Shown here: positions 23,370 to 31,697 of the stretch, one piece after another
Numbering within the stretch: position 1 is the stretch's first letter
Layout: every line of letters starts with the position of its first letter
DNA from: Desulfomicrobium sp.
Lineage (GTDB): Bacteria > Desulfobacterota > Desulfovibrionia > Desulfovibrionales > Desulfomicrobiaceae
Direction: 5' to 3'
Assembly (NCBI GenBank): GCA_040768745.1
Contig: JAXGMI010000001.1
Coordinates: 960,001-1,024,000 of the forward strand
Length of the DNA: 64,000 nucleotides
The notes under the pieces: model-generated
What the model was told of the DNA's origin: nothing
Databases searched by the model: none
Seen by the model: the letters and a program-made list of their open reading frames with translations, nothing else
Position numbers and translations under genes: made by a program

Positions 23370-24905
23370 ATGATCGCCACGGTCTCCACCGCCGCACTGC
23401 TGGGAATCGACGGATTCACCATCGAGTTGGAGGTGGACCTGGCCCGTTCGGGTTTACCGGCCTTCACCATGGTCGGTCTGGCCGAAGGGGCAGTGCGCGA
23501 GGCCAAGGAGCGTGTGTTTTCAGCCCTGAAGAATTCAGGCTTCAAGCTTCCTCCATCCCGCATCACCGTGAACATCGCCCCTGCTGACATCCGCAAGGAA
23601 GGGTCAGGCTACGATCTGCCCCTGGCCCTGGGTCTCTTGGCTGGGGCAGAGGTCATCCCCCAGGAACGTCTCCTTGGCCTTTACCTCGTTGGCGAACTGT
23701 CCCTGTCCGGGGAGCTGAAGCCCGTGCCCGGGGTTTTGCCTCTGGCCCTGCGGGCCAAGGAAGCCGGGGCCCGAGGTATCGTTGTGCCCGCAGCCAACGG
23801 CCGGGAAGCAGCCGTGGTCAAGGGGCTCCCGGTGTTCGCCTGCGAGACGCTTTCGCAGGTGGTGCGGTTTGTTCTGGACGAAACAGATCTGCTCCCCATG
23901 ACCTGCGATGTGAACACATTGTGGGGCGGACACCAAATCTTTTGGCGGGATTTTTCCGAGGTCAAGGGCCAGGAGCGGGCCAAGCGGGCCATTGAGATCG
24001 CCTGCGCAGGGGCGCACAACCTCCTTTTCATCGGTCCCCCGGGCAGTGGCAAGACCATGCTTTCCAGCCGCATTCCCACGGTTCTGCCACCCCTGACTTT
24101 TGACGAGGCCCTGGAGGTGACCAAGATCTATTCCGTGGCCGGAAAGCTTCCGTCAGACCAACCCCTGGTGGTCAATCGACCGTTCCGATCTCCCCATCAT
24201 ACCATTTCCGATGCCGGTCTCATCGGCGGGGGCCAGTATCCGCGCCCGGGAGAGCTGTCCCTGGCTCACCGGGGAGTTCTTTTTCTGGACGAACTGCCGG
24301 AGTTCAAGAAGCATGTCCTTGAGGTGCTACGCCAGCCATTGGAAGAAGGGCGGGTGACCATTTCCCGGGCTGCCGTATCGCTGGAGTACCCCGGTGACGT
24401 CATGCTGGTAGCGGCCATGAATCCTTGCCCGTGCGGGTATCTCGGCGACGACAAGCACCACTGCTCCTGCACGCCCATCCAGATCCAGCGCTATCGCTCC
24501 CGGCTTTCAGGCCCTCTCCTGGACCGCATCGACCTGCACGTGGAGGTCCCGGCCGTGCCCTACCGCGATTTGAAGCAGGAAAGCGGGGCCATCAGCTCCG
24601 CAGCCATGCAGGAGCGGATCAACAGGGCCAGGGAGGTGCAGCTGGCGCGGTATGAGGGCCTGCACTTTTCCTCCAACTCGGAGCTTTCGGGCAAATGGCT
24701 GGAACGCTTCTGTCCGTTGACGGAGTCAGAACACGCCTTTCTGGAGGGCGCAGTGCAGCGTCTAGGGATGTCGGCGCGTGCCTTCACCCGGGTGCTGCGC
24801 ATCTCCCGCACCATCGCCGACCTGGCCGGGGACAGCGACCTCACGGTCAGGCATCTGGCTGAAGCCATCAACTATCGCGGTCTGGATCGGCAGAGCCAAG
24901 AATAG
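23370..24905 (+). CDS. comM: YifB/ComM family Mg-chelatase-like AAA+ ATPase
   Basis: KEGSGYDLP, GPPGSGKT, RPFRSPHH and AMNPCPCG motifs. Confidence 0.9.
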   Translation: MIATVSTAALLGIDGFTIELEVDLARSGLPAFTMVGLAEGAVREAKERVFSALKNSGFKLPPSRITVNIAPADIRKEGSGYDLPLALGLLAGAEVIPQERLLGLYLVGELSLSGELKPVPGVLPLALRAKEAGARGIVVPAANGREAAVVKGLPVFACETLSQVVRFVLDETDLLPMTCDVNTLWGGHQIFWRDFSEVKGQERAKRAIEIACAGAHNLLFIGPPGSGKTMLSSRIPTVLPPLTFDEALEVTKIYSVAGKLPSDQPLVVNRPFRSPHHTISDAGLIGGGQYPRPGELSLAHRGVLFLDELPEFKKHVLEVLRQPLEEGRVTISRAAVSLEYPGDVMLVAAMNPCPCGYLGDDKHHCSCTPIQIQRYRSRLSGPLLDRIDLHVEVPAVPYRDLKQESGAISSAAMQERINRAREVQLARYEGLHFSSNSELSGKWLERFCPLTESEHAFLEGAVQRLGMSARAFTRVLRISRTIADLAGDSDLTVRHLAEAINYRGLDRQSQE

Positions 24906-24968
24906 CAGGGTTGTCATGGCTTGGGCCAATGGCGTAAGCAAGGATTACGCAACAATAAGGAGTGAGCC

Positions 24969-26303
24969 ATGACGTCTATTTTTGGTGATCGGGCCTATAG
25001 AGGAGTGCTGACCCGTCGGGATTTCATTACGTTGGCAGCCCTGGCCGCCGTATCCACTGTTGCTGGGTGTGCCGCCAATCCCGTCACCGGCCAGAGCCAG
25101 CTCATGCTCATGAGCGAAGGAGAGGAAATTCAGGTCGACAAGGTCAATGCCCCTCACCAGTTTTCGGCAGATTATGGTGTGACCCAGGATGCAGGTCTGA
25201 ACGCGTATGTCAGGGGGGTGGGCATGGCCCTGGCCAGAAGTTCGCACCGCGCACATATGCCCTACCAGTTCAATGTGGTGAATGCGACGTATGTCAACGC
25301 CTACGCCTTTCCTGGCGGGAGCATCGCCATCACTCGCGGCATCCTGGCCGAGTTGGATAACGAAGCCGAACTGGCCGGGCTCATCGGCCACGAACTGGGA
25401 CACGTCAACGCCCGGCACACGGCTGCGAGTATGTCAAAAAGCAAGATCCTCGGCACTGTTGTCGGGGGTGTCTCGCTCATTGCTGGAGCGGCCAGCCAGG
25501 GTCTGGGCAATCTGGCCGGCACAGTAGGCGGCCTTGGGGCCAGCCTTTTCCTGGCCAAGTACAGCCGCGAGGATGAGCGCCAGGCTGACGAGCTGGGCAT
25601 GGAGTACATGGTCAGCGCAGGATATTCCTCCCAGGGTATGGTCGGACTTATGGATGTGCTGCGGTCCATGAGCAAAAGCCAGCCCAGCGCCATCGAAGCC
25701 ATGTTCTCTTCGCATCCCATGAGTGCCGAACGCTACGAAACAGCAGTGCAACGTTCCCGCCAGCAGTATCCTGACAAGCAGAAGCTGCCGCTCAACGCTG
25801 AACGCTACAAGGACTCCACGGCCTCTTTGCGCAGACTCAAGCCCATGTTCACGCTTTTTCAGGAAGGGGACAAAGCCATGGCGGCAAAGGAATACGCCTC
25901 CGCCCAGAATCGGTACGCGGAGGGGTTGCAGCATGCCCCCAACGACTACGCCGGTCTGCTCATGATGGCCAAATGCCTCGTGGCCCAGAAAAAGGGCAAC
26001 CAGGCTGCGGAGTATGCGGCCAGGGCAAGAAAGGCCTACCCGACAGAGGCCCAGGCCATGCATATTCACGGCGTGGCATCCATCATGAACAAGGATTATT
26101 CTGCGGCCCTGGTGGACTTCAGCGCCTACGAACGGGCCTTGCCGGGGAATCCGACCACGGTGTTCATGAAGGGTTTTTCTTACGAGGGCATGCAAAACAA
26201 ACAGAACGCGGCCCAGGAATACCAGCGCTACCTGAAGGCCGTGAACCAGGGTGAAATGGCCCAGCACGCCTATTCCAGACTCAAAACCTGGGGATATCTG
26301 TGA
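24969..26303 (+). CDS. M48 metallopeptidase lipoprotein with TPR C-terminus
   Basis: TRRDF...VAGC signal, NAYAFPGG, HELGH, YSREDERQAD and SHP motifs. Confidence 0.9.
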   Translation: MTSIFGDRAYRGVLTRRDFITLAALAAVSTVAGCAANPVTGQSQLMLMSEGEEIQVDKVNAPHQFSADYGVTQDAGLNAYVRGVGMALARSSHRAHMPYQFNVVNATYVNAYAFPGGSIAITRGILAELDNEAELAGLIGHELGHVNARHTAASMSKSKILGTVVGGVSLIAGAASQGLGNLAGTVGGLGASLFLAKYSREDERQADELGMEYMVSAGYSSQGMVGLMDVLRSMSKSQPSAIEAMFSSHPMSAERYETAVQRSRQQYPDKQKLPLNAERYKDSTASLRRLKPMFTLFQEGDKAMAAKEYASAQNRYAEGLQHAPNDYAGLLMMAKCLVAQKKGNQAAEYAARARKAYPTEAQAMHIHGVASIMNKDYSAALVDFSAYERALPGNPTTVFMKGFSYEGMQNKQNAAQEYQRYLKAVNQGEMAQHAYSRLKTWGYL

Positions 26304-26326
26304 TACTGGCGGGACACACAGTTCAG

Positions 26327-26356
26327 AGAGGCCATTCGGGAACGGGTGGCCTTTTT
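26327..26356 (+). terminator. Rho-independent terminator
   Basis: AGGCCATTCG...CGGGTGGCCT stem followed by a T tract. Confidence 0.7.
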
Positions 26357-26369
26357 GTTTGAGGGGTAA

Positions 26370-28721
26370 ATGAAAATAAAGATTCTTGTCATGGTTGCGC
26401 TATGCGCAGGCATTTTGTTCGGTAACCATGGATTGGCCCAGGAAGACCGGCCAGTTTCAGAGAGCGTCTCGGTCCTGTCCTCTTTTTTCCAGACCAAGGC
26501 CAAGGAAGTGGGCGATCTGCAGAGGGAAGCGGATGCGCTGCAAGAGCGGTTGAAGAGCCAGGAAGCGGGATTCAAGGCCGTCATGGATACGGCTCGCGAT
26601 CGCCTGCAGACTCTCGACGTAATGGCGCGCATGGTCAAGACAAACCCTTACGACATGCGTGTGGCCCTGGCAGAAGCCACATATCTCCACCTGAGCCTGA
26701 CCAAGGATTCCGAGCCCCTGATGGCTCTGGTCAAGGAGGTCGGGGCCATGGGGGTCACCGTCGGCTCCCTGCAGGAAGACTTGGAGCGCAAGTGGGCCGC
26801 CGGGCAGGACAGGATCGTGCGGGAGGACGTGCAGCTCATTCGCAAGGATGTCACAGAAGTTGCCAAGAAAATTAAGGAGTTGCAGGTCAGCGTGGAAAAG
26901 CTGCAGGCCCAGACGACCGAAATCCAGACCCGCACCGCTGAGTGGATCACCGCCTTCCAGACTCAGCTTCCCTTGATCTGGAAGGCGGAGTTTCTGGATG
27001 CAAAGGAGTTTCGGCTGTTGCCCACCAGAGGGGACGACATCAGCAAGGACCTCGTGGACTGGTTGACGAATCTGAAAGCGCTTTTTTCCAGCCAGTACGC
27101 TTCGGCCACCCAGGAGCACGGGGATTGGATCGGGATGCTTGTCCTTTTCTGGCTCCCTTTCGTGTTCGTCGGTTTTGCCGCCTATCGCTTTCTGAAAGGG
27201 GTTTTTGAAAACGCACATGCTGGCGGACGACTGGCCTCTGCTTTTGGCATCCTCTGGCTGTCCCTGGCCTTGTCCCTGCTCGCCGCCTTTCTGGCCGGTC
27301 TGGTAAAACAGACCTCCCTGCTGCTGGTCGCCACGCACGTGCTCATGCTGATGGGGGTGCAGGCACTGGCCTGGGTTTTCCGCAACGTGCGGGGAACTCT
27401 GCAGAAAAAAAGCCTGCAACCCTTACTGCCATTGGTTTTCCTGTCCACCAGCGTGTCCGTTCTGGACCTCCTGCGCCTGCCCCACTGGCTGGAGCATCTT
27501 TCCTGGGTGGGTCTGGTGGTGTTGAGCAGCCTTTTTTTCGGCATGATCCAGCCAAAGTTGCGGTACGAGCGCCTCATCCGCCGGGCGCACCCATACGTTA
27601 TGGCGATTCTGGTGGCCGTGGCAGTCCTTGGCTGGGGCAATCTGGCCATTCTGGCCAGCACTCTGTGGGGCGTTGTGGCTCTGGCGCTGCAACTCGGCAT
27701 TGGGGCGACGAGCGTGGTAAGGGTCTTGTTCGAAAAGCTGGACAAGACCGGCTTCAAGGCCCTGGTGGCTGACCTGGCCGTGACGTTCCTGACGCTCCTG
27801 GTTTGGCTTGTGGTGCTGCTTGGGATCATGGCTTGGATTTCCATCAATCTCGGCACCAACGTCGTTTACGAAAAGCTTTCGACCATGGAACTGAACTGGG
27901 GTGATTTTTCCTTCAATTTCCTGCGGCTGGGCGTCGTCATTCTGCTGTTTCAGGTTGTGCGCTCCCTGGCCATGGCCTGGAAGACGGTCCTGGACAGCGA
28001 GCACCTGCGCTGGAAGAATATCGACCACGGTGCGGCGGCTTCCCTGCAGCGTATCGGTATCTACTGCCTGTGGCTGCTGTATGCACTTGTCAGCCTGAAT
28101 TTACTGGGCATCAGTCTGACCAGCTTCGCGGTCATCGCCGGGGGCCTTTCCGTTGGCATCGGCTTCGGCATGCAGACCATTATCAGCAATTTCATCAGCG
28201 GCCTCATCCTTCTCTTCGACCGCGCCATCCAGCCCGGCGATGTCATCGAGGTGAACGGGGTCTGGGCCAAGGTCATGAGCGTCAACATCCGCAATACCGA
28301 GGTGCAGACATTCGAAAATGCCAAGATATTCCTGCCCAATTCGACCCTTATCGCCAACCAAGTCACCAACTGGACGCACCGCAACGATGTGCGCATCCGT
28401 CGCGACGTGGCCGTGGGCGTGGCCTATGGTTCGGATGTGCAGCTGGTCAAGCAGCTCCTGCTGGAGGCAGTCACTGAACATCCTGCTGTGCTCTCCGCGC
28501 CTGCGCCCTGGGTCATTTTCAGTAATTTTGGGGTGAACTCTCTGGATTTTATCGCCCGCTTCTGGGTCCGGCACGTGGATCTGTCCGCATCTGCCCCTTC
28601 TGAAATCCGGGAGGCCATCGATGCCAAGTTCCGGGAGAACGGCATTGAAATCCCGTTTCCACAGATGGATCTCCACGTCCGATCCGGGGAGGGGTTCGTT
28701 CGGATAAAGCGGGAGGACTGA
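26370..28721 (+). CDS. Large MscS-family mechanosensitive channel (MscK-like)
   Basis: Signal peptide, coiled coil, many TM segments, GGLSVGIGFGMQ...NFISG, VGVAYGSD and IEIPFPQ motifs. Confidence 0.92.
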   Translation: MKIKILVMVALCAGILFGNHGLAQEDRPVSESVSVLSSFFQTKAKEVGDLQREADALQERLKSQEAGFKAVMDTARDRLQTLDVMARMVKTNPYDMRVALAEATYLHLSLTKDSEPLMALVKEVGAMGVTVGSLQEDLERKWAAGQDRIVREDVQLIRKDVTEVAKKIKELQVSVEKLQAQTTEIQTRTAEWITAFQTQLPLIWKAEFLDAKEFRLLPTRGDDISKDLVDWLTNLKALFSSQYASATQEHGDWIGMLVLFWLPFVFVGFAAYRFLKGVFENAHAGGRLASAFGILWLSLALSLLAAFLAGLVKQTSLLLVATHVLMLMGVQALAWVFRNVRGTLQKKSLQPLLPLVFLSTSVSVLDLLRLPHWLEHLSWVGLVVLSSLFFGMIQPKLRYERLIRRAHPYVMAILVAVAVLGWGNLAILASTLWGVVALALQLGIGATSVVRVLFEKLDKTGFKALVADLAVTFLTLLVWLVVLLGIMAWISINLGTNVVYEKLSTMELNWGDFSFNFLRLGVVILLFQVVRSLAMAWKTVLDSEHLRWKNIDHGAAASLQRIGIYCLWLLYALVSLNLLGISLTSFAVIAGGLSVGIGFGMQTIISNFISGLILLFDRAIQPGDVIEVNGVWAKVMSVNIRNTEVQTFENAKIFLPNSTLIANQVTNWTHRNDVRIRRDVAVGVAYGSDVQLVKQLLLEAVTEHPAVLSAPAPWVIFSNFGVNSLDFIARFWVRHVDLSASAPSEIREAIDAKFRENGIEIPFPQMDLHVRSGEGFVRIKRED

Positions 28722-29411: not shown

Positions 29412-29946
29412 ATTCACCTCCTGCTTGTTTCTCGGTGCTGTTCTTTTTTTTGTTCGTCAATCCCCAGTTTATAAAACCGTCAAGACAAACACCTGAATTC
29501 ATTTTTTGAACAGGCAATGAACAGAATTATCAGCCGCAGGGAAAATGGTTGATGTGTTCGCAAAAGTATTATTGCAATGTTCGGATTGATATTAATATTC
29601 TGAAATAATAGAATAAAATATCAACTAGTGGGTGTCAGTAACTTTTATTGGGCAAAGCCAGCCGGATTATCGGCCCATTTAGGAACACACCAGCCGAGGC
29701 AGAGTTTTCGGGGATTACGAACATCAGCATCTGCGAAAATGTAACCTTGTGTTGGCGGGGGGGCGGGCCATTGAGCGGGCTCCAACGATCGCCGGCGCGG
29801 GTTGAGAAGAACAGGGACTGAGACTGTCGGAGTCTTGCTTGCAGGCGGGAAGACGTGCCGCAGTGTGCATGCCGAGAAGGGGGTCTGTTAAGTTCCTTCC
29901 ATGGATATTATATTGAATTAAAGGGATTAGTTGTGAACAGCACGAC

Positions 29947-30405
29947 TTATGAAGCCCATGTGAAGGTAAAAAGGCATGCGGGCGCCCCCTGCATGATGGT
30001 CCTGGAGCGGTACATGGACAGGTTTGGGCTGTAGCCCTGGGCAAAGGGTTCATCCCGGGAACAGGACAGGATGGACCCAAGTTCCGGTGCCAGGCCCATG
30101 TCAGCATAGGATTGGGCATAGCCGCAGGCCGTCACGGCGAAATGCAGGGCCGTCTCAGTCAGGCGGATGTCTTTTATATTCAGCGCACCTCCGTCCTGCC
30201 AGCGGTCCAGGACCGTGGCAAAATGGTGCAGGCTCGCTCGGCCCGGGGCCGTGCGGGCAAACGTTTCCCCCGCACATCGGGCGTCGGCTGCGATGGCTGC
30301 GACCAGGATCGCACTGGCCCGCTCAGTGCCGACCTCCTGTCTCAAGGATTCCCAGATGCGGGCGACAAGTCCGGCCTGGGCGATACGAATGGCAAGCATG
30401 TGCAT
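29947..30405 (-). CDS. L-2-amino-thiazoline-4-carboxylic acid hydrolase-like family protein
   Basis: FAVTACGYA, LSCSRDEPFA and RSRTIMQGAPAC motifs. Confidence 0.8.
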   Translation of the reverse strand: MHMLAIRIAQAGLVARIWESLRQEVGTERASAILVAAIAADARCAGETFARTAPGRASLHHFATVLDRWQDGGALNIKDIRLTETALHFAVTACGYAQSYADMGLAPELGSILSCSRDEPFAQGYSPNLSMYRSRTIMQGAPACLFTFTWAS

Positions 30406-30449
30406 GGGGTCTCTTTGCTTTCAGATTGGAGTGGGATAATTGATACGCC

Positions 30450-30857
30450 ATGTTTCAGGGCCACTTGTTCATCAGCTGCCGGCGGCTGGAATGTCCCGGC
30501 CATGATCCTTTTCTGGTTGACGAGAGCAGGGCCGACTTGGAGTCATCCGGCCAGAGAATGCTGCTCTGTCGGGCCTGCGGCCAGCCCATCGCCAGCCCCA
30601 GGGACCGGATCGAGGTGGGCGGTAGACACATCCATGCCCTCTTCAACCCTATGGGCATTCTTTTCGAGGTCGGTTGCTTTGCCCAAGCCGGGGGGTGCGG
30701 CTTCGGTGGGGATTCCACCCTCGCCTTCACTTGGTTTGCGGGATATGCATGGCGTTTTGCCTTCTGCCGCCAGTGCTCCGTCCAACTTGGCTGGGAATAT
30801 CAAAGCCGGTCGGACAGGTTTGTGGGTCTCATCATGACCGAACTGCGTGAGTCATGA
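30450..30857 (+). CDS. Cereblon (CULT/thalidomide-binding domain) family protein
   Basis: CRAC and CRQC Zn ligands, FNPMG, FTWFAGYAW and LGWEY aromatic-cage motifs. Confidence 0.88.
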   Translation: MFQGHLFISCRRLECPGHDPFLVDESRADLESSGQRMLLCRACGQPIASPRDRIEVGGRHIHALFNPMGILFEVGCFAQAGGCGFGGDSTLAFTWFAGYAWRFAFCRQCSVQLGWEYQSRSDRFVGLIMTELRES

Positions 30858-30995
30858 TTTGTCCTTGTCTCTGGGCTGCCAACTGCAGCCCTTGGTGGCT
30901 GGGCCTCAGCCATGAATCCCGATTTTCGGGAATACGACCTTGACCAGCACGATCCATACGCCGACGATAAGCAAGACATACAACAGATCTTCCAT
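30852..30995 (-). CDS. Putative 47-aa membrane selenoprotein MEDLLYVLLIVGVWIVLVKVVFPKIGIHG(U)GPATKGCSWQPRDKDKS; 29 aa if the UGA is a stop
   Basis: Not in the ORF track. GAGGAGGGAG RBS directly after the sirtuin stop, one hydrophobic helix, in-frame TGA at 30906-30908, SECIS-like hairpin downstream. Confidence 0.7.
30873..30891 (-). other. Bacterial SECIS-like stem-loop
   Basis: GGGCUGC-AGUUG-GCAGCCC on the minus strand; loop starts 21 nt after the UGA and has GU at loop positions 2-3. Confidence 0.6.
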
Positions 30996-31007
30996 ATTTC
31001 TCCCTCC

Positions 31008-31697
31008 TCACATTCCAAGCAGTTCATCCACGAGAAGCGGCACGCGCCGGGTGGCCTTTTCACGGAACACCCTGGCTCCCGGGATCCACCCCGGTTCGGC
31101 CTCGGGATCAATGACGAATACCACCGCCCGTGCCGGGGCCTCATGGGCCAGGGATGCCGCGGGATATACGGCCAGGGACGTTCCGATGATCAGGAGCGTG
31201 TCTGCCGTGGCCACCACTGCGCTCGCTTTGTGCATCATGGGTACGGGTTCCCCGAACCAAACCACGTCGGGCCGGAGCTGGCTGCCCAGGGGACAGGTGT
31301 CACCCATGCGGATGGGTCTGTATCCGATGTCCACGACTAGGTCCGGGTCCGCGGAGCTGCGTGCCTGGCACAGCTGGCCGTGCAGGTGCAGGACATTGGT
31401 TGAGCCGGCCCGTTCATGCAGATTGTCCACGTTCTGGGTGACTATTGTGACCCGGTACCCTTGCTCCAGACGGGCAAGGGCCGTATGGGCCTTGTTGGGC
31501 TGCGCGATTTCCAGTTGGGCCCGGCGCTGGTTGTAGAACTCCAGGACCAGTGCCGGACTCCGGGCAAAGGCTTCTGTTGTGGCCACGTCCTCGATGCGGT
31601 GCTTGAACCACAAGCCACCGGCACCCCGAAATGTGGGGATGCCGCTCTCGGCGCTGATCCCAGCGCCGGTCAAAACCACGACGTGTTTATAGTCCAT
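31008..31697 (-). CDS. cobB: NAD-dependent protein deacylase (Sir2/CobB)
   Basis: GAGISAESGIPTFRG, TQNVDNLHERAG, HLHG, RPDVVWFGE and GTSLAVYPA motifs. Confidence 0.92.
   Translation of the reverse strand: MDYKHVVVLTGAGISAESGIPTFRGAGGLWFKHRIEDVATTEAFARSPALVLEFYNQRRAQLEIAQPNKAHTALARLEQGYRVTIVTQNVDNLHERAGSTNVLHLHGQLCQARSSADPDLVVDIGYRPIRMGDTCPLGSQLRPDVVWFGEPVPMMHKASAVVATADTLLIIGTSLAVYPAASLAHEAPARAVVFVIDPEAEPGWIPGARVFREKATRRVPLLVDELLGM

Follow-up and report, generated by a model that had tools for sequence, protein, structure and literature searches.

A short open reading frame with an in-frame UGA in Desulfomicrobium sp. probably encodes a membrane-anchored member of a previously predicted selenoprotein family

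Does the short space between a cobB-like sirtuin gene and a convergent cereblon-like gene of Desulfomicrobium sp. encode a selenoprotein and, if so, what could such a small protein do? The locus lies in a stretch of DNA of 64,000 nt (the window, to which all positions refer unless a contig is named), in which a preliminary description had marked a short reading frame interrupted by a UGA and followed by a hairpin (Table 1). On the minus strand, this frame starts with an ATG at 30995, runs over 29 codons to an in-frame TGA (30908-30906) and continues for 17 codons to a second TGA (30854-30852). Read-through would yield a product of 47 residues in which the distance from U30 to C37 gives a U-x6-C motif, the Cys37 codon (30887-30885) being part of the 5' arm of the hairpin. 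The start codon, the ribosome-binding site over the sirtuin stop and the coordinates of the frame all agreed with the sequence as described, as did the perfect 7-bp stem with the loop AGUUG starting 21 nt after the UGA, and the 6-nt tail-to-tail overlap with the cereblon gene (30450-30857, plus strand) is real. GGAGG-like sites also precede the start in most relatives of the small ORF.

Table 1. Position of the features of the small reading frame and its neighbours in the window
Feature	Position	Strand	Remark
Read-through ORF, 47 codons, with U30 and C37	30852..30995	-	Belongs to the predicted selenoprotein family 'Unknown / Geobacter lovleyi hypothetical'
Shine-Dalgarno-like sequence GAGGAGGGAG	31000..31009	-	Overlaps the stop of the cobB-like sirtuin gene (31010-31008)
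Residues 2-24, predicted as one helix with a hydrophobic core and a likely N-out/C-in orientation	30924..30992	-	AlphaFold and family charge
In-frame TGA, likely selenocysteine 30	30906..30908	-	Conserved TGA column; Cys in homologues
bSECIS-type hairpin, 7-bp stem, loop AGUUG, 21 nt past the UGA	30873..30891	-	Arms 30891-30885 and 30879-30873
6-nt stop-to-stop overlap with the convergent cereblon-like gene	30852..30857	both	Sequence
cobB-like sirtuin (Sir2/CobB deacylase), upstream neighbour	31008..31697	-	Local; conservation does not extend over the family
Bacterial cereblon homologue, convergent neighbour	30450..30857	+	E 4e-22 to cereblon isoform 4; near kin only

The offset between the two stops was unchanged in 17 of the 18 near-kin loci that have the cereblon-like neighbour, despite a varying length of the tail of the small protein. 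Divergent from the cereblon gene, the window holds a gene of the L-2-amino-thiazoline-4-carboxylic acid hydrolase family (PF14196; 29947-30405, minus strand).

A search of the Desulfomicrobium genome detected tRNA-Sec, selA, selB and selD, the machinery for selenocysteine (Sec). In-frame TGA codons are also present in its SelD and in two of its three formate dehydrogenase alpha genes, with hairpins located 20-23 nt from the TGA at -7.1 to -9.9 kcal. Two of these alpha genes adjoin each other (G000:C1:18319-21324 and 23454-26462), an in-frame TGA being present in the first but not in the second, and ARAGORN reported a 92-nt tRNA-like element with an unreadable anticodon at G000:C1:800738-800829. 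Among the relatives of the small ORF, exactly one TGA, located at the same column, was found in each of the 41 best matches at E≤0.002 (61 genomes searched), the match that followed carrying a TAA. The TGA occupied the same column in all 30 near-kin loci inspected in full, where the frame then runs on for 16-30 codons, and was present in 28 of 29 distant loci. No in-frame stop occurred within 15 codons after the TGA in any of 169 TGA forms, the other two frames containing 59 and 87 stops. In 14 loci of the same genus, pN/pS amounted to 0.18 upstream of the TGA, to 0.22 within the spacer and to 0.01 over the tail, and pS dropped from 0.43 to 0.08 within the hairpin; the low pN/pS past the TGA and the collapse of pS in the hairpin thus indicate that both the protein and the RNA are constrained. 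A contig of a related strain showed, among the 8 of its 14 differences that were listed, seven changes past the TGA, five of them synonymous and two accounting for a replacement of Arg42 by Lys, none of the seven falling in the hairpin.

A selA match was obtained in 374 of 401 genomes of the phylum, and the family-positive genomes lacking such a match had selB or tRNA-Sec in 10 of the 10 cases checked. Searched for selB in assemblies of unstated completeness, 38 of 41 genomes carrying a TGA form gave a match versus four of nine carrying a Cys form, and four of the five Cys-form genomes without selB likewise had no tRNA-Sec match. Two selB matches above the cut-off were observed in each of the genomes G068, G178, G196 and G414, with a second, weaker tRNA-Sec-like match near the second selB in G068 and G196.

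The opposite reading, namely that the UGA is a plain stop, that the product is a peptide of 29 residues and that the hairpin acts as a terminator or stability element, appears hardly credible. The 29-residue form is indeed what the databases hold, and one relative, L045, has a TAA at the Sec site (L045:1501-1683, from G029, a small, selA-positive genome that is 100% complete). Apart from this exception, the stop codon at the site is almost only TGA, and the Cys forms, mostly devoid of the hairpin, read on in frame. The purifying selection downstream of the TGA and the presence of selB or tRNA-Sec in all ten family-positive genomes without a selA match that were checked also speak against a plain stop. 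A role of the hairpin as an intrinsic terminator was ruled out, since a U-rich tract is absent after the stem on either strand and a terminator scan passed over it. The L045 copy itself lacks the conserved Trp, has a weak hairpin and is probably decaying. With the machinery, the TGA column, the hairpin and the selection past the TGA in agreement, the Sec recoding proposed in the preliminary description is very probable; the alternation of Cys and UGA at position 30 and the conservation beyond the UGA, both named there as checks, were observed in the homologues. We conclude that the in-frame TGA at 30908-30906 is very probably a selenocysteine codon, which SelB and tRNA-Sec would read.

The hairpin itself has an energy of -13.3 kcal/mol. 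In the bSECIS model, as given in the legend to Fig. 2 of PMC13188914, the loop has 3-9 nt with a G within its initial two nucleotides, lies 16-37 nt past the UGA and the energy is at most -7.5; with its loop AGUUG, its distance of 21 nt and its energy of -13.3, the hairpin of the window gene falls within these limits. It shares with bacterial SECIS elements located within ORFs and read by SelB a loop of 5 nt, a stem of 7 bp and a G at loop position 2 followed by U, with no difference in mechanism, and resembles the selD and fdhA hairpins of the same genome. For background, this genome has 2328 open stretches that end in TGA and comprise 250 codons or more; a hairpin of -13 or better follows 38 of them, and one reaching -5 follows 398. 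Both sides of the pair had changed in four of the seven stem pairs, a degree of covariation reached by none of 500 shuffles in a test that is inflated by the near kin not being independent. The counts of hairpins and of context exclude L045 (TAA) and L055 (no second Cys nearby). Hairpins of at least -5 kcal in stability followed the TGA in 140 of 161 distinct TGA forms and the Cys codon in two of nine Cys forms; upon synonymous recoding, the mean was 14 of 161. At the published limit of -7.5 kcal, with stem-only energy used here, the numbers were 81 of 161 and zero of nine. A search for promoters inside the ORF gave one sigma-70-like match against 0.8 expected by chance, and the Rfam search gave two chance matches only.

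The second residue of the putative redox pair needs separate consideration. The Cys37 codon was TGC in all 30 near kin and lies inside the SECIS stem, so that near kin cannot show whether Cys37 matters to the protein, and distant relatives are needed. In the distant forms, the codon of the second Cys lies outside the stem in 55 of 140 cases and is TGT in 42 of 140, which supports that the second Cys is a feature of the protein. Also the Cys-form proteins keep the second Cys. Full-length Cys forms made up 9 of 20 and 10 of 20 of the proteins fetched in two protein searches, including one of Desulfobaculum bizertense (P0028) that belongs to the same U/C-x6-C subtype as the window gene. The spacing from U to C varies in the family between x4, x5 and x6, with x8 in L181, and two TGA forms, namely L055 and the second tandem copy in L188, have no second Cys nearby. 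In the latter locus (G039:C1:157900-160100, minus strand), a pair of paralogues lies in tandem and both contain an in-frame TGA, one with a shortened helix end and U-x5-C and the other with the full motif and no second Cys. A divergent form, L187 (G045:C1, near 2474665-2474790, minus strand), has a different, shorter helix with a Gly-rich end, after which the UGA, the U-x6-C tail and the hairpin are as in the window gene.

The preliminary description implied that this selenoprotein was novel; this did not hold, since the family is already contained in published selenoprotein datasets. It is not new and was predicted in 2008: the part of PMC2398784 (2008) used here counts 'Unknown' among the previously described families, with 15 sequences or reads and 0 Cys homologues, and the same motif is present in its Dataset S1. 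Supplement file 4 of PMC5029168 (2016) gives 'Unknown (Geobacter lovleyi)' in five organisms by name without sequence, so that it is identified with the family through the common label only, and six sequences of the family are included in a 2025 dataset. The family was not seen among the 119 entries of Table 1 of a 2026 review (PMC13188914), and the word 'lovleyi' is absent from the main text of PMC9312934 and from the known-family table of PMC12013277. The family has a model in neither Pfam nor NCBIfam. Six peptide motifs were not found in the main texts of papers, the family surfacing in supplements only. No paper dealing with what the family does, with its context or with its Cys homologues came up in our literature search; the works of Haft and Tolstoy (2025) and of Deng et al. 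(2026) may bear on novelty.

The assignment of the window gene to this family is based on sequence homology and on the motif, with Sec placed straight after P-[KR]-x-G-[IV]-x-x near residue 30 and a Cys a few residues on. Common to the window protein and the published members are a charged tail, a single hydrophobic helix, the motifs W-x2-L and [LF]-P-[KR]-x-G-[IV], Sec near position 30 and, a short way on, a second Cys. They differ in that the published members examined have T-U or N-U and U-x4-C or U-x5-C, whereas the window protein has G-U and U-x6-C, its Cys codon lying within the SECIS stem. The truncated form of one published entry (P0146, identical by eye) matched the family profile at E 1.8e-4; for the part before Sec only, it matched the near-kin alignment A3 with a probability of 96.6% and E 6.8e-10, and the window protein at 11 of 26 positions.

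What is new here is the breadth of the family in the phylum, the Cys homologues, none of which were reported in 2008, the U-x6-C subtype in Desulfovibrionales, and the thiol/sulfur-redox and FmdB-Sec neighbours. With a broader profile, 186 of the 401 sampled genomes from the phylum gave a match at E≤0.002, and with a narrow profile 170 of 401 at E≤0.05. A degenerate DNA pattern, which required TGA or TGY and a Cys five codons on and thus cannot reveal exceptions, retrieved at least 120 loci from the genome collection, those listed comprising 111 TGA and 9 Cys forms of the same architecture. According to their titles, 80 of the listed loci include members of the Desulfobacterota, Planctomycetota, Acidobacteria, Chloroflexia, KSB1, Armatimonadota and Spirochaetes. 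With the near-kin pattern no relatives were found in viral contigs, and with one Cys form as query none in plasmids. Such breadth would make the family one of the commoner selenoproteins of anaerobes, the Cys homologues provide a form tractable for biochemistry, and the neighbourhood offers a first testable idea of function. Among 78 profile hits in protein databases, 44 were exactly 29 residues long, which is the truncation expected if the UGA is misread as a stop, and the protein of the same-genus relative Desulfomicrobium macestii is likewise stored in truncated form.

The single helix postulated earlier is also predicted by AlphaFold, which models one helix over residues 2-24, with a pLDDT of 87-89 for residues 1-20, a tail of low confidence, an overall pLDDT of 72 and a pTM of 0.39. 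Positively charged residues flanking membrane helices tend to lie on the cytoplasmic side (the positive-inside rule). Across the family, the net charge is -0.5 before the helix and +1.7 after it, which by this rule would place Sec in the cytoplasm, just under the membrane. The protein is therefore predicted to cross the membrane once, with a cytoplasmic tail. Near-invariant residues are a W (174 of 177), a P (176 of 177) and a G (177 of 177), partly forced by the search pattern. No match passing the cut-off was obtained for the window protein in NCBIfam or Pfam, nor for 14 relatives in NCBIfam and 26 in Pfam, and the best hit of a PDB sequence search had an E of 0.17; a single unnamed cluster, at 0.89, came from the ESM Atlas and serves as a lead only. 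In the way they may work, and with no homology claimed, the eukaryotic selenoproteins S and K are similar in that they are small, belong to the membrane and carry Sec in a disordered region, but they differ in having Sec near the C-terminus, the SECIS in the 3' UTR and a length 2-4 times greater.

Regarding its immediate surroundings, the gene upstream varies among the near kin, being cobB, a divergent tatD, purC or fabI. A functional meaning of the cobB neighbourhood is consequently unsupported, and cobB and cereblon were rejected as functional partners because both are limited to near kin. Contigs of three metatranscriptomes from one study extend over cobB and the small ORF, one of them spanning 30882-31136, a weak sign of expression since contigs tell neither which strand was transcribed nor whether the genes share a transcript; no contig of any of the four runs reaches into 29900-30718, from which nothing follows. 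That cobB and the small gene are co-transcribed in this genome is plausible. In the loci L003, L004, L007, L008, L011, L015 and L018, a conserved motif TTGAC ... GCGCATG was noticed by eye 40-65 nt upstream of the start, which is likely the small gene's own promoter where cobB is absent.

In more distant loci, the recurring neighbours encode FmdB zinc ribbons, ArsR, thioredoxin, TlpA, CcdA, rhodanese, fusions of metallo-beta-lactamase and rhodanese, YgaP-like proteins and TauE. Of two sets of distant loci (two loci being in both), 49 of 80 and 20 of 27 have at least one of twelve thiol/sulfur-redox or sensor families at a distance of 1.5-2.5 kb or less, as compared with 0 of 30 near-kin loci, the window locus included, and with 4.5% of random 5-kb windows of this genome, the one genome that served as a control; the list of families was chosen after the data had been seen, and the profiles were built from those same neighbours. 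Thioredoxin or TlpA accounted for 15, rhodanese for 9 and YgaP-like proteins for 11 of the 80 loci. At L082:2462-2971 (plus strand), a family member is fused in frame, past the UGA, to a complete WCGPC thioredoxin, the sole such case and possibly a lost stop; ArsR, TlpA and rubrerythrin genes surround it. The C-terminal half of the YgaP-like proteins matched the family profile with a probability of 67% and a score of 25.0, with 60 column shuffles scoring at most 21.5 and 11 other neighbour sets at most 12.2. The weak alignment involves an L-x-K-L-G-x-x-x-C stretch of YgaP-like proteins (PF11127, DUF2892), which differ in that they contain two helices and in that their conserved C-P fails to align with Sec. 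None of the 26 members of alignment A6 matched PF11127, and neither did the window protein.

Considering these features together, we tentatively propose that Sec30 and Cys37 constitute a membrane-tethered, cytoplasm-facing redox relay, a reading drawn from sequence that we regard as falling a little short of probable. The SelB machinery, the in-frame UGA and the conserved hairpin 21 nt downstream are seen in the sequence; SelB and tRNA-Sec would read the UGA as Sec, failing which a 29-residue stub would be made. Residues 2-24 are predicted to form one helix crossing the inner membrane with the N-terminus out. The conserved W14, L17 and the P-[KR]-x-G-[IV] turn, which probably make a docking face, would set Sec immediately beneath the membrane, on the cytoplasmic side, in a charged tail that is disordered. 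Together with the Cys located 5-7 residues further on, Sec could then cycle between selenol/thiol and selenenylsulfide or persulfide, accepting oxidant or sulfane sulfur at the membrane surface before its re-reduction by thioredoxin. The peptide would be part of thiol- and sulfur-stress modules comprising thioredoxin, TlpA/CcdA, rhodanese, persulfide-dioxygenase-like, YgaP-like, ArsR and FmdB proteins. TlpA and CcdA act on or towards the outer side of the membrane, so that topology, which here is predicted only, matters for such a relay. In the part of PMC9163753 used here, rhodanese domains clustered with persulfide dioxygenase are described as limiting the build-up of sulfane sulfur. In this genome, the small gene stands away from such a module, among housekeeping genes.

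The Sec and Cys might instead serve as ligands for soft metals (Cu, Hg, Zn, As), the peptide acting as a membrane-tethered trap, chaperone or sensor that possibly exchanges metal with the FmdB zinc ribbon. We consider this unlikely, though less so than the two alternatives that follow. The presence of CC or CCC at or after the site in the Cys forms P0031, P0060, P0077, P0087, L064 and L173 would suit metal binding, the variable spacing between U and C fits a flexible chelator, and part of the work of Haft and Gwadz ties CU/CC motifs to metal handling. Repressors of the ArsR/SmtB and CsoR types, an ArsP permease with an HMA domain, ZnuA and a cation-efflux protein are found among the neighbours; however, the metal transporters are single cases, while thioredoxin/TlpA, rhodanese and YgaP-like proteins recur, and the ArsR neighbours fall below every specific metal-sensor cut-off. 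It is also conceivable, but improbable, that the selenoprotein is a small accessory subunit of a larger membrane complex, to which its helix would attach and whose activity it would control by the state of the Sec/Cys pair. The W, P and G are conserved far beyond what a plain anchor needs, the profile shows the weak likeness to the C-terminal half of YgaP-like proteins, and RND and cytochrome bd-like genes lie near some loci, but no one membrane partner recurs over most loci and, by profile, this genome has no YgaP-like match. Such docking would be compatible with the redox relay and does not exclude it. Finally, the ORF could be a selenium-sensing element in which read-through couples translation to the next gene, the protein being of little import. 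The next gene begins at or overlaps the read-through stop in several loci (ECF sigma, YkuD, thioredoxin, methyltransferase), whereas in this genome and its near kin it is convergent; the conservation of the helix, of U/C and of the second C, and the retention of the gene as a Cys form, make this very improbable.

FmdB-type proteins are the commonest neighbour of the family. Among 27 distinct cases, 26 have a TGA near the end with one to three further codons before the stop, and in 24 there is a bSECIS-like hairpin of at least -5 in stability, which suggests that this zinc ribbon likely carries a C-terminal selenocysteine. It differs in this respect from the published FmdB selenoprotein, in which Sec is in the zinc ribbon. 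By hand count, 44 of 64 genomes positive for the FmdB tail also matched the family, 31 of them within 0.5 kb and across nine families; the tail profile used for this count missed the copy of the Desulfomicrobium genome itself. An obligate partnership is unsupported, as 20 of the 64 tail-positive genomes have no family match, eight of these 20 belonging to one family. The small peptide could form the membrane half of a relay of two selenoproteins, its partner being the FmdB-type zinc ribbon ending in C-x5-9-G-F-[ST]-Sec and encoded alongside, on either side, in many lineages; such a relay would pass sulfane sulfur, electrons or soft metal between membrane and cytoplasm in anaerobes of several phyla, an idea that we put forward as speculative and rather unlikely. 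Zinc ribbons of the FmdB type ending in G-F-[ST]-TGA occur at L033-L058, L061, L070, L077, L079, L085, L112, L115, L124, L127, L130 and L140, and the Desulfomicrobium genome encodes one that is unlinked to the small gene (G000:C2, minus strand, start 166617).
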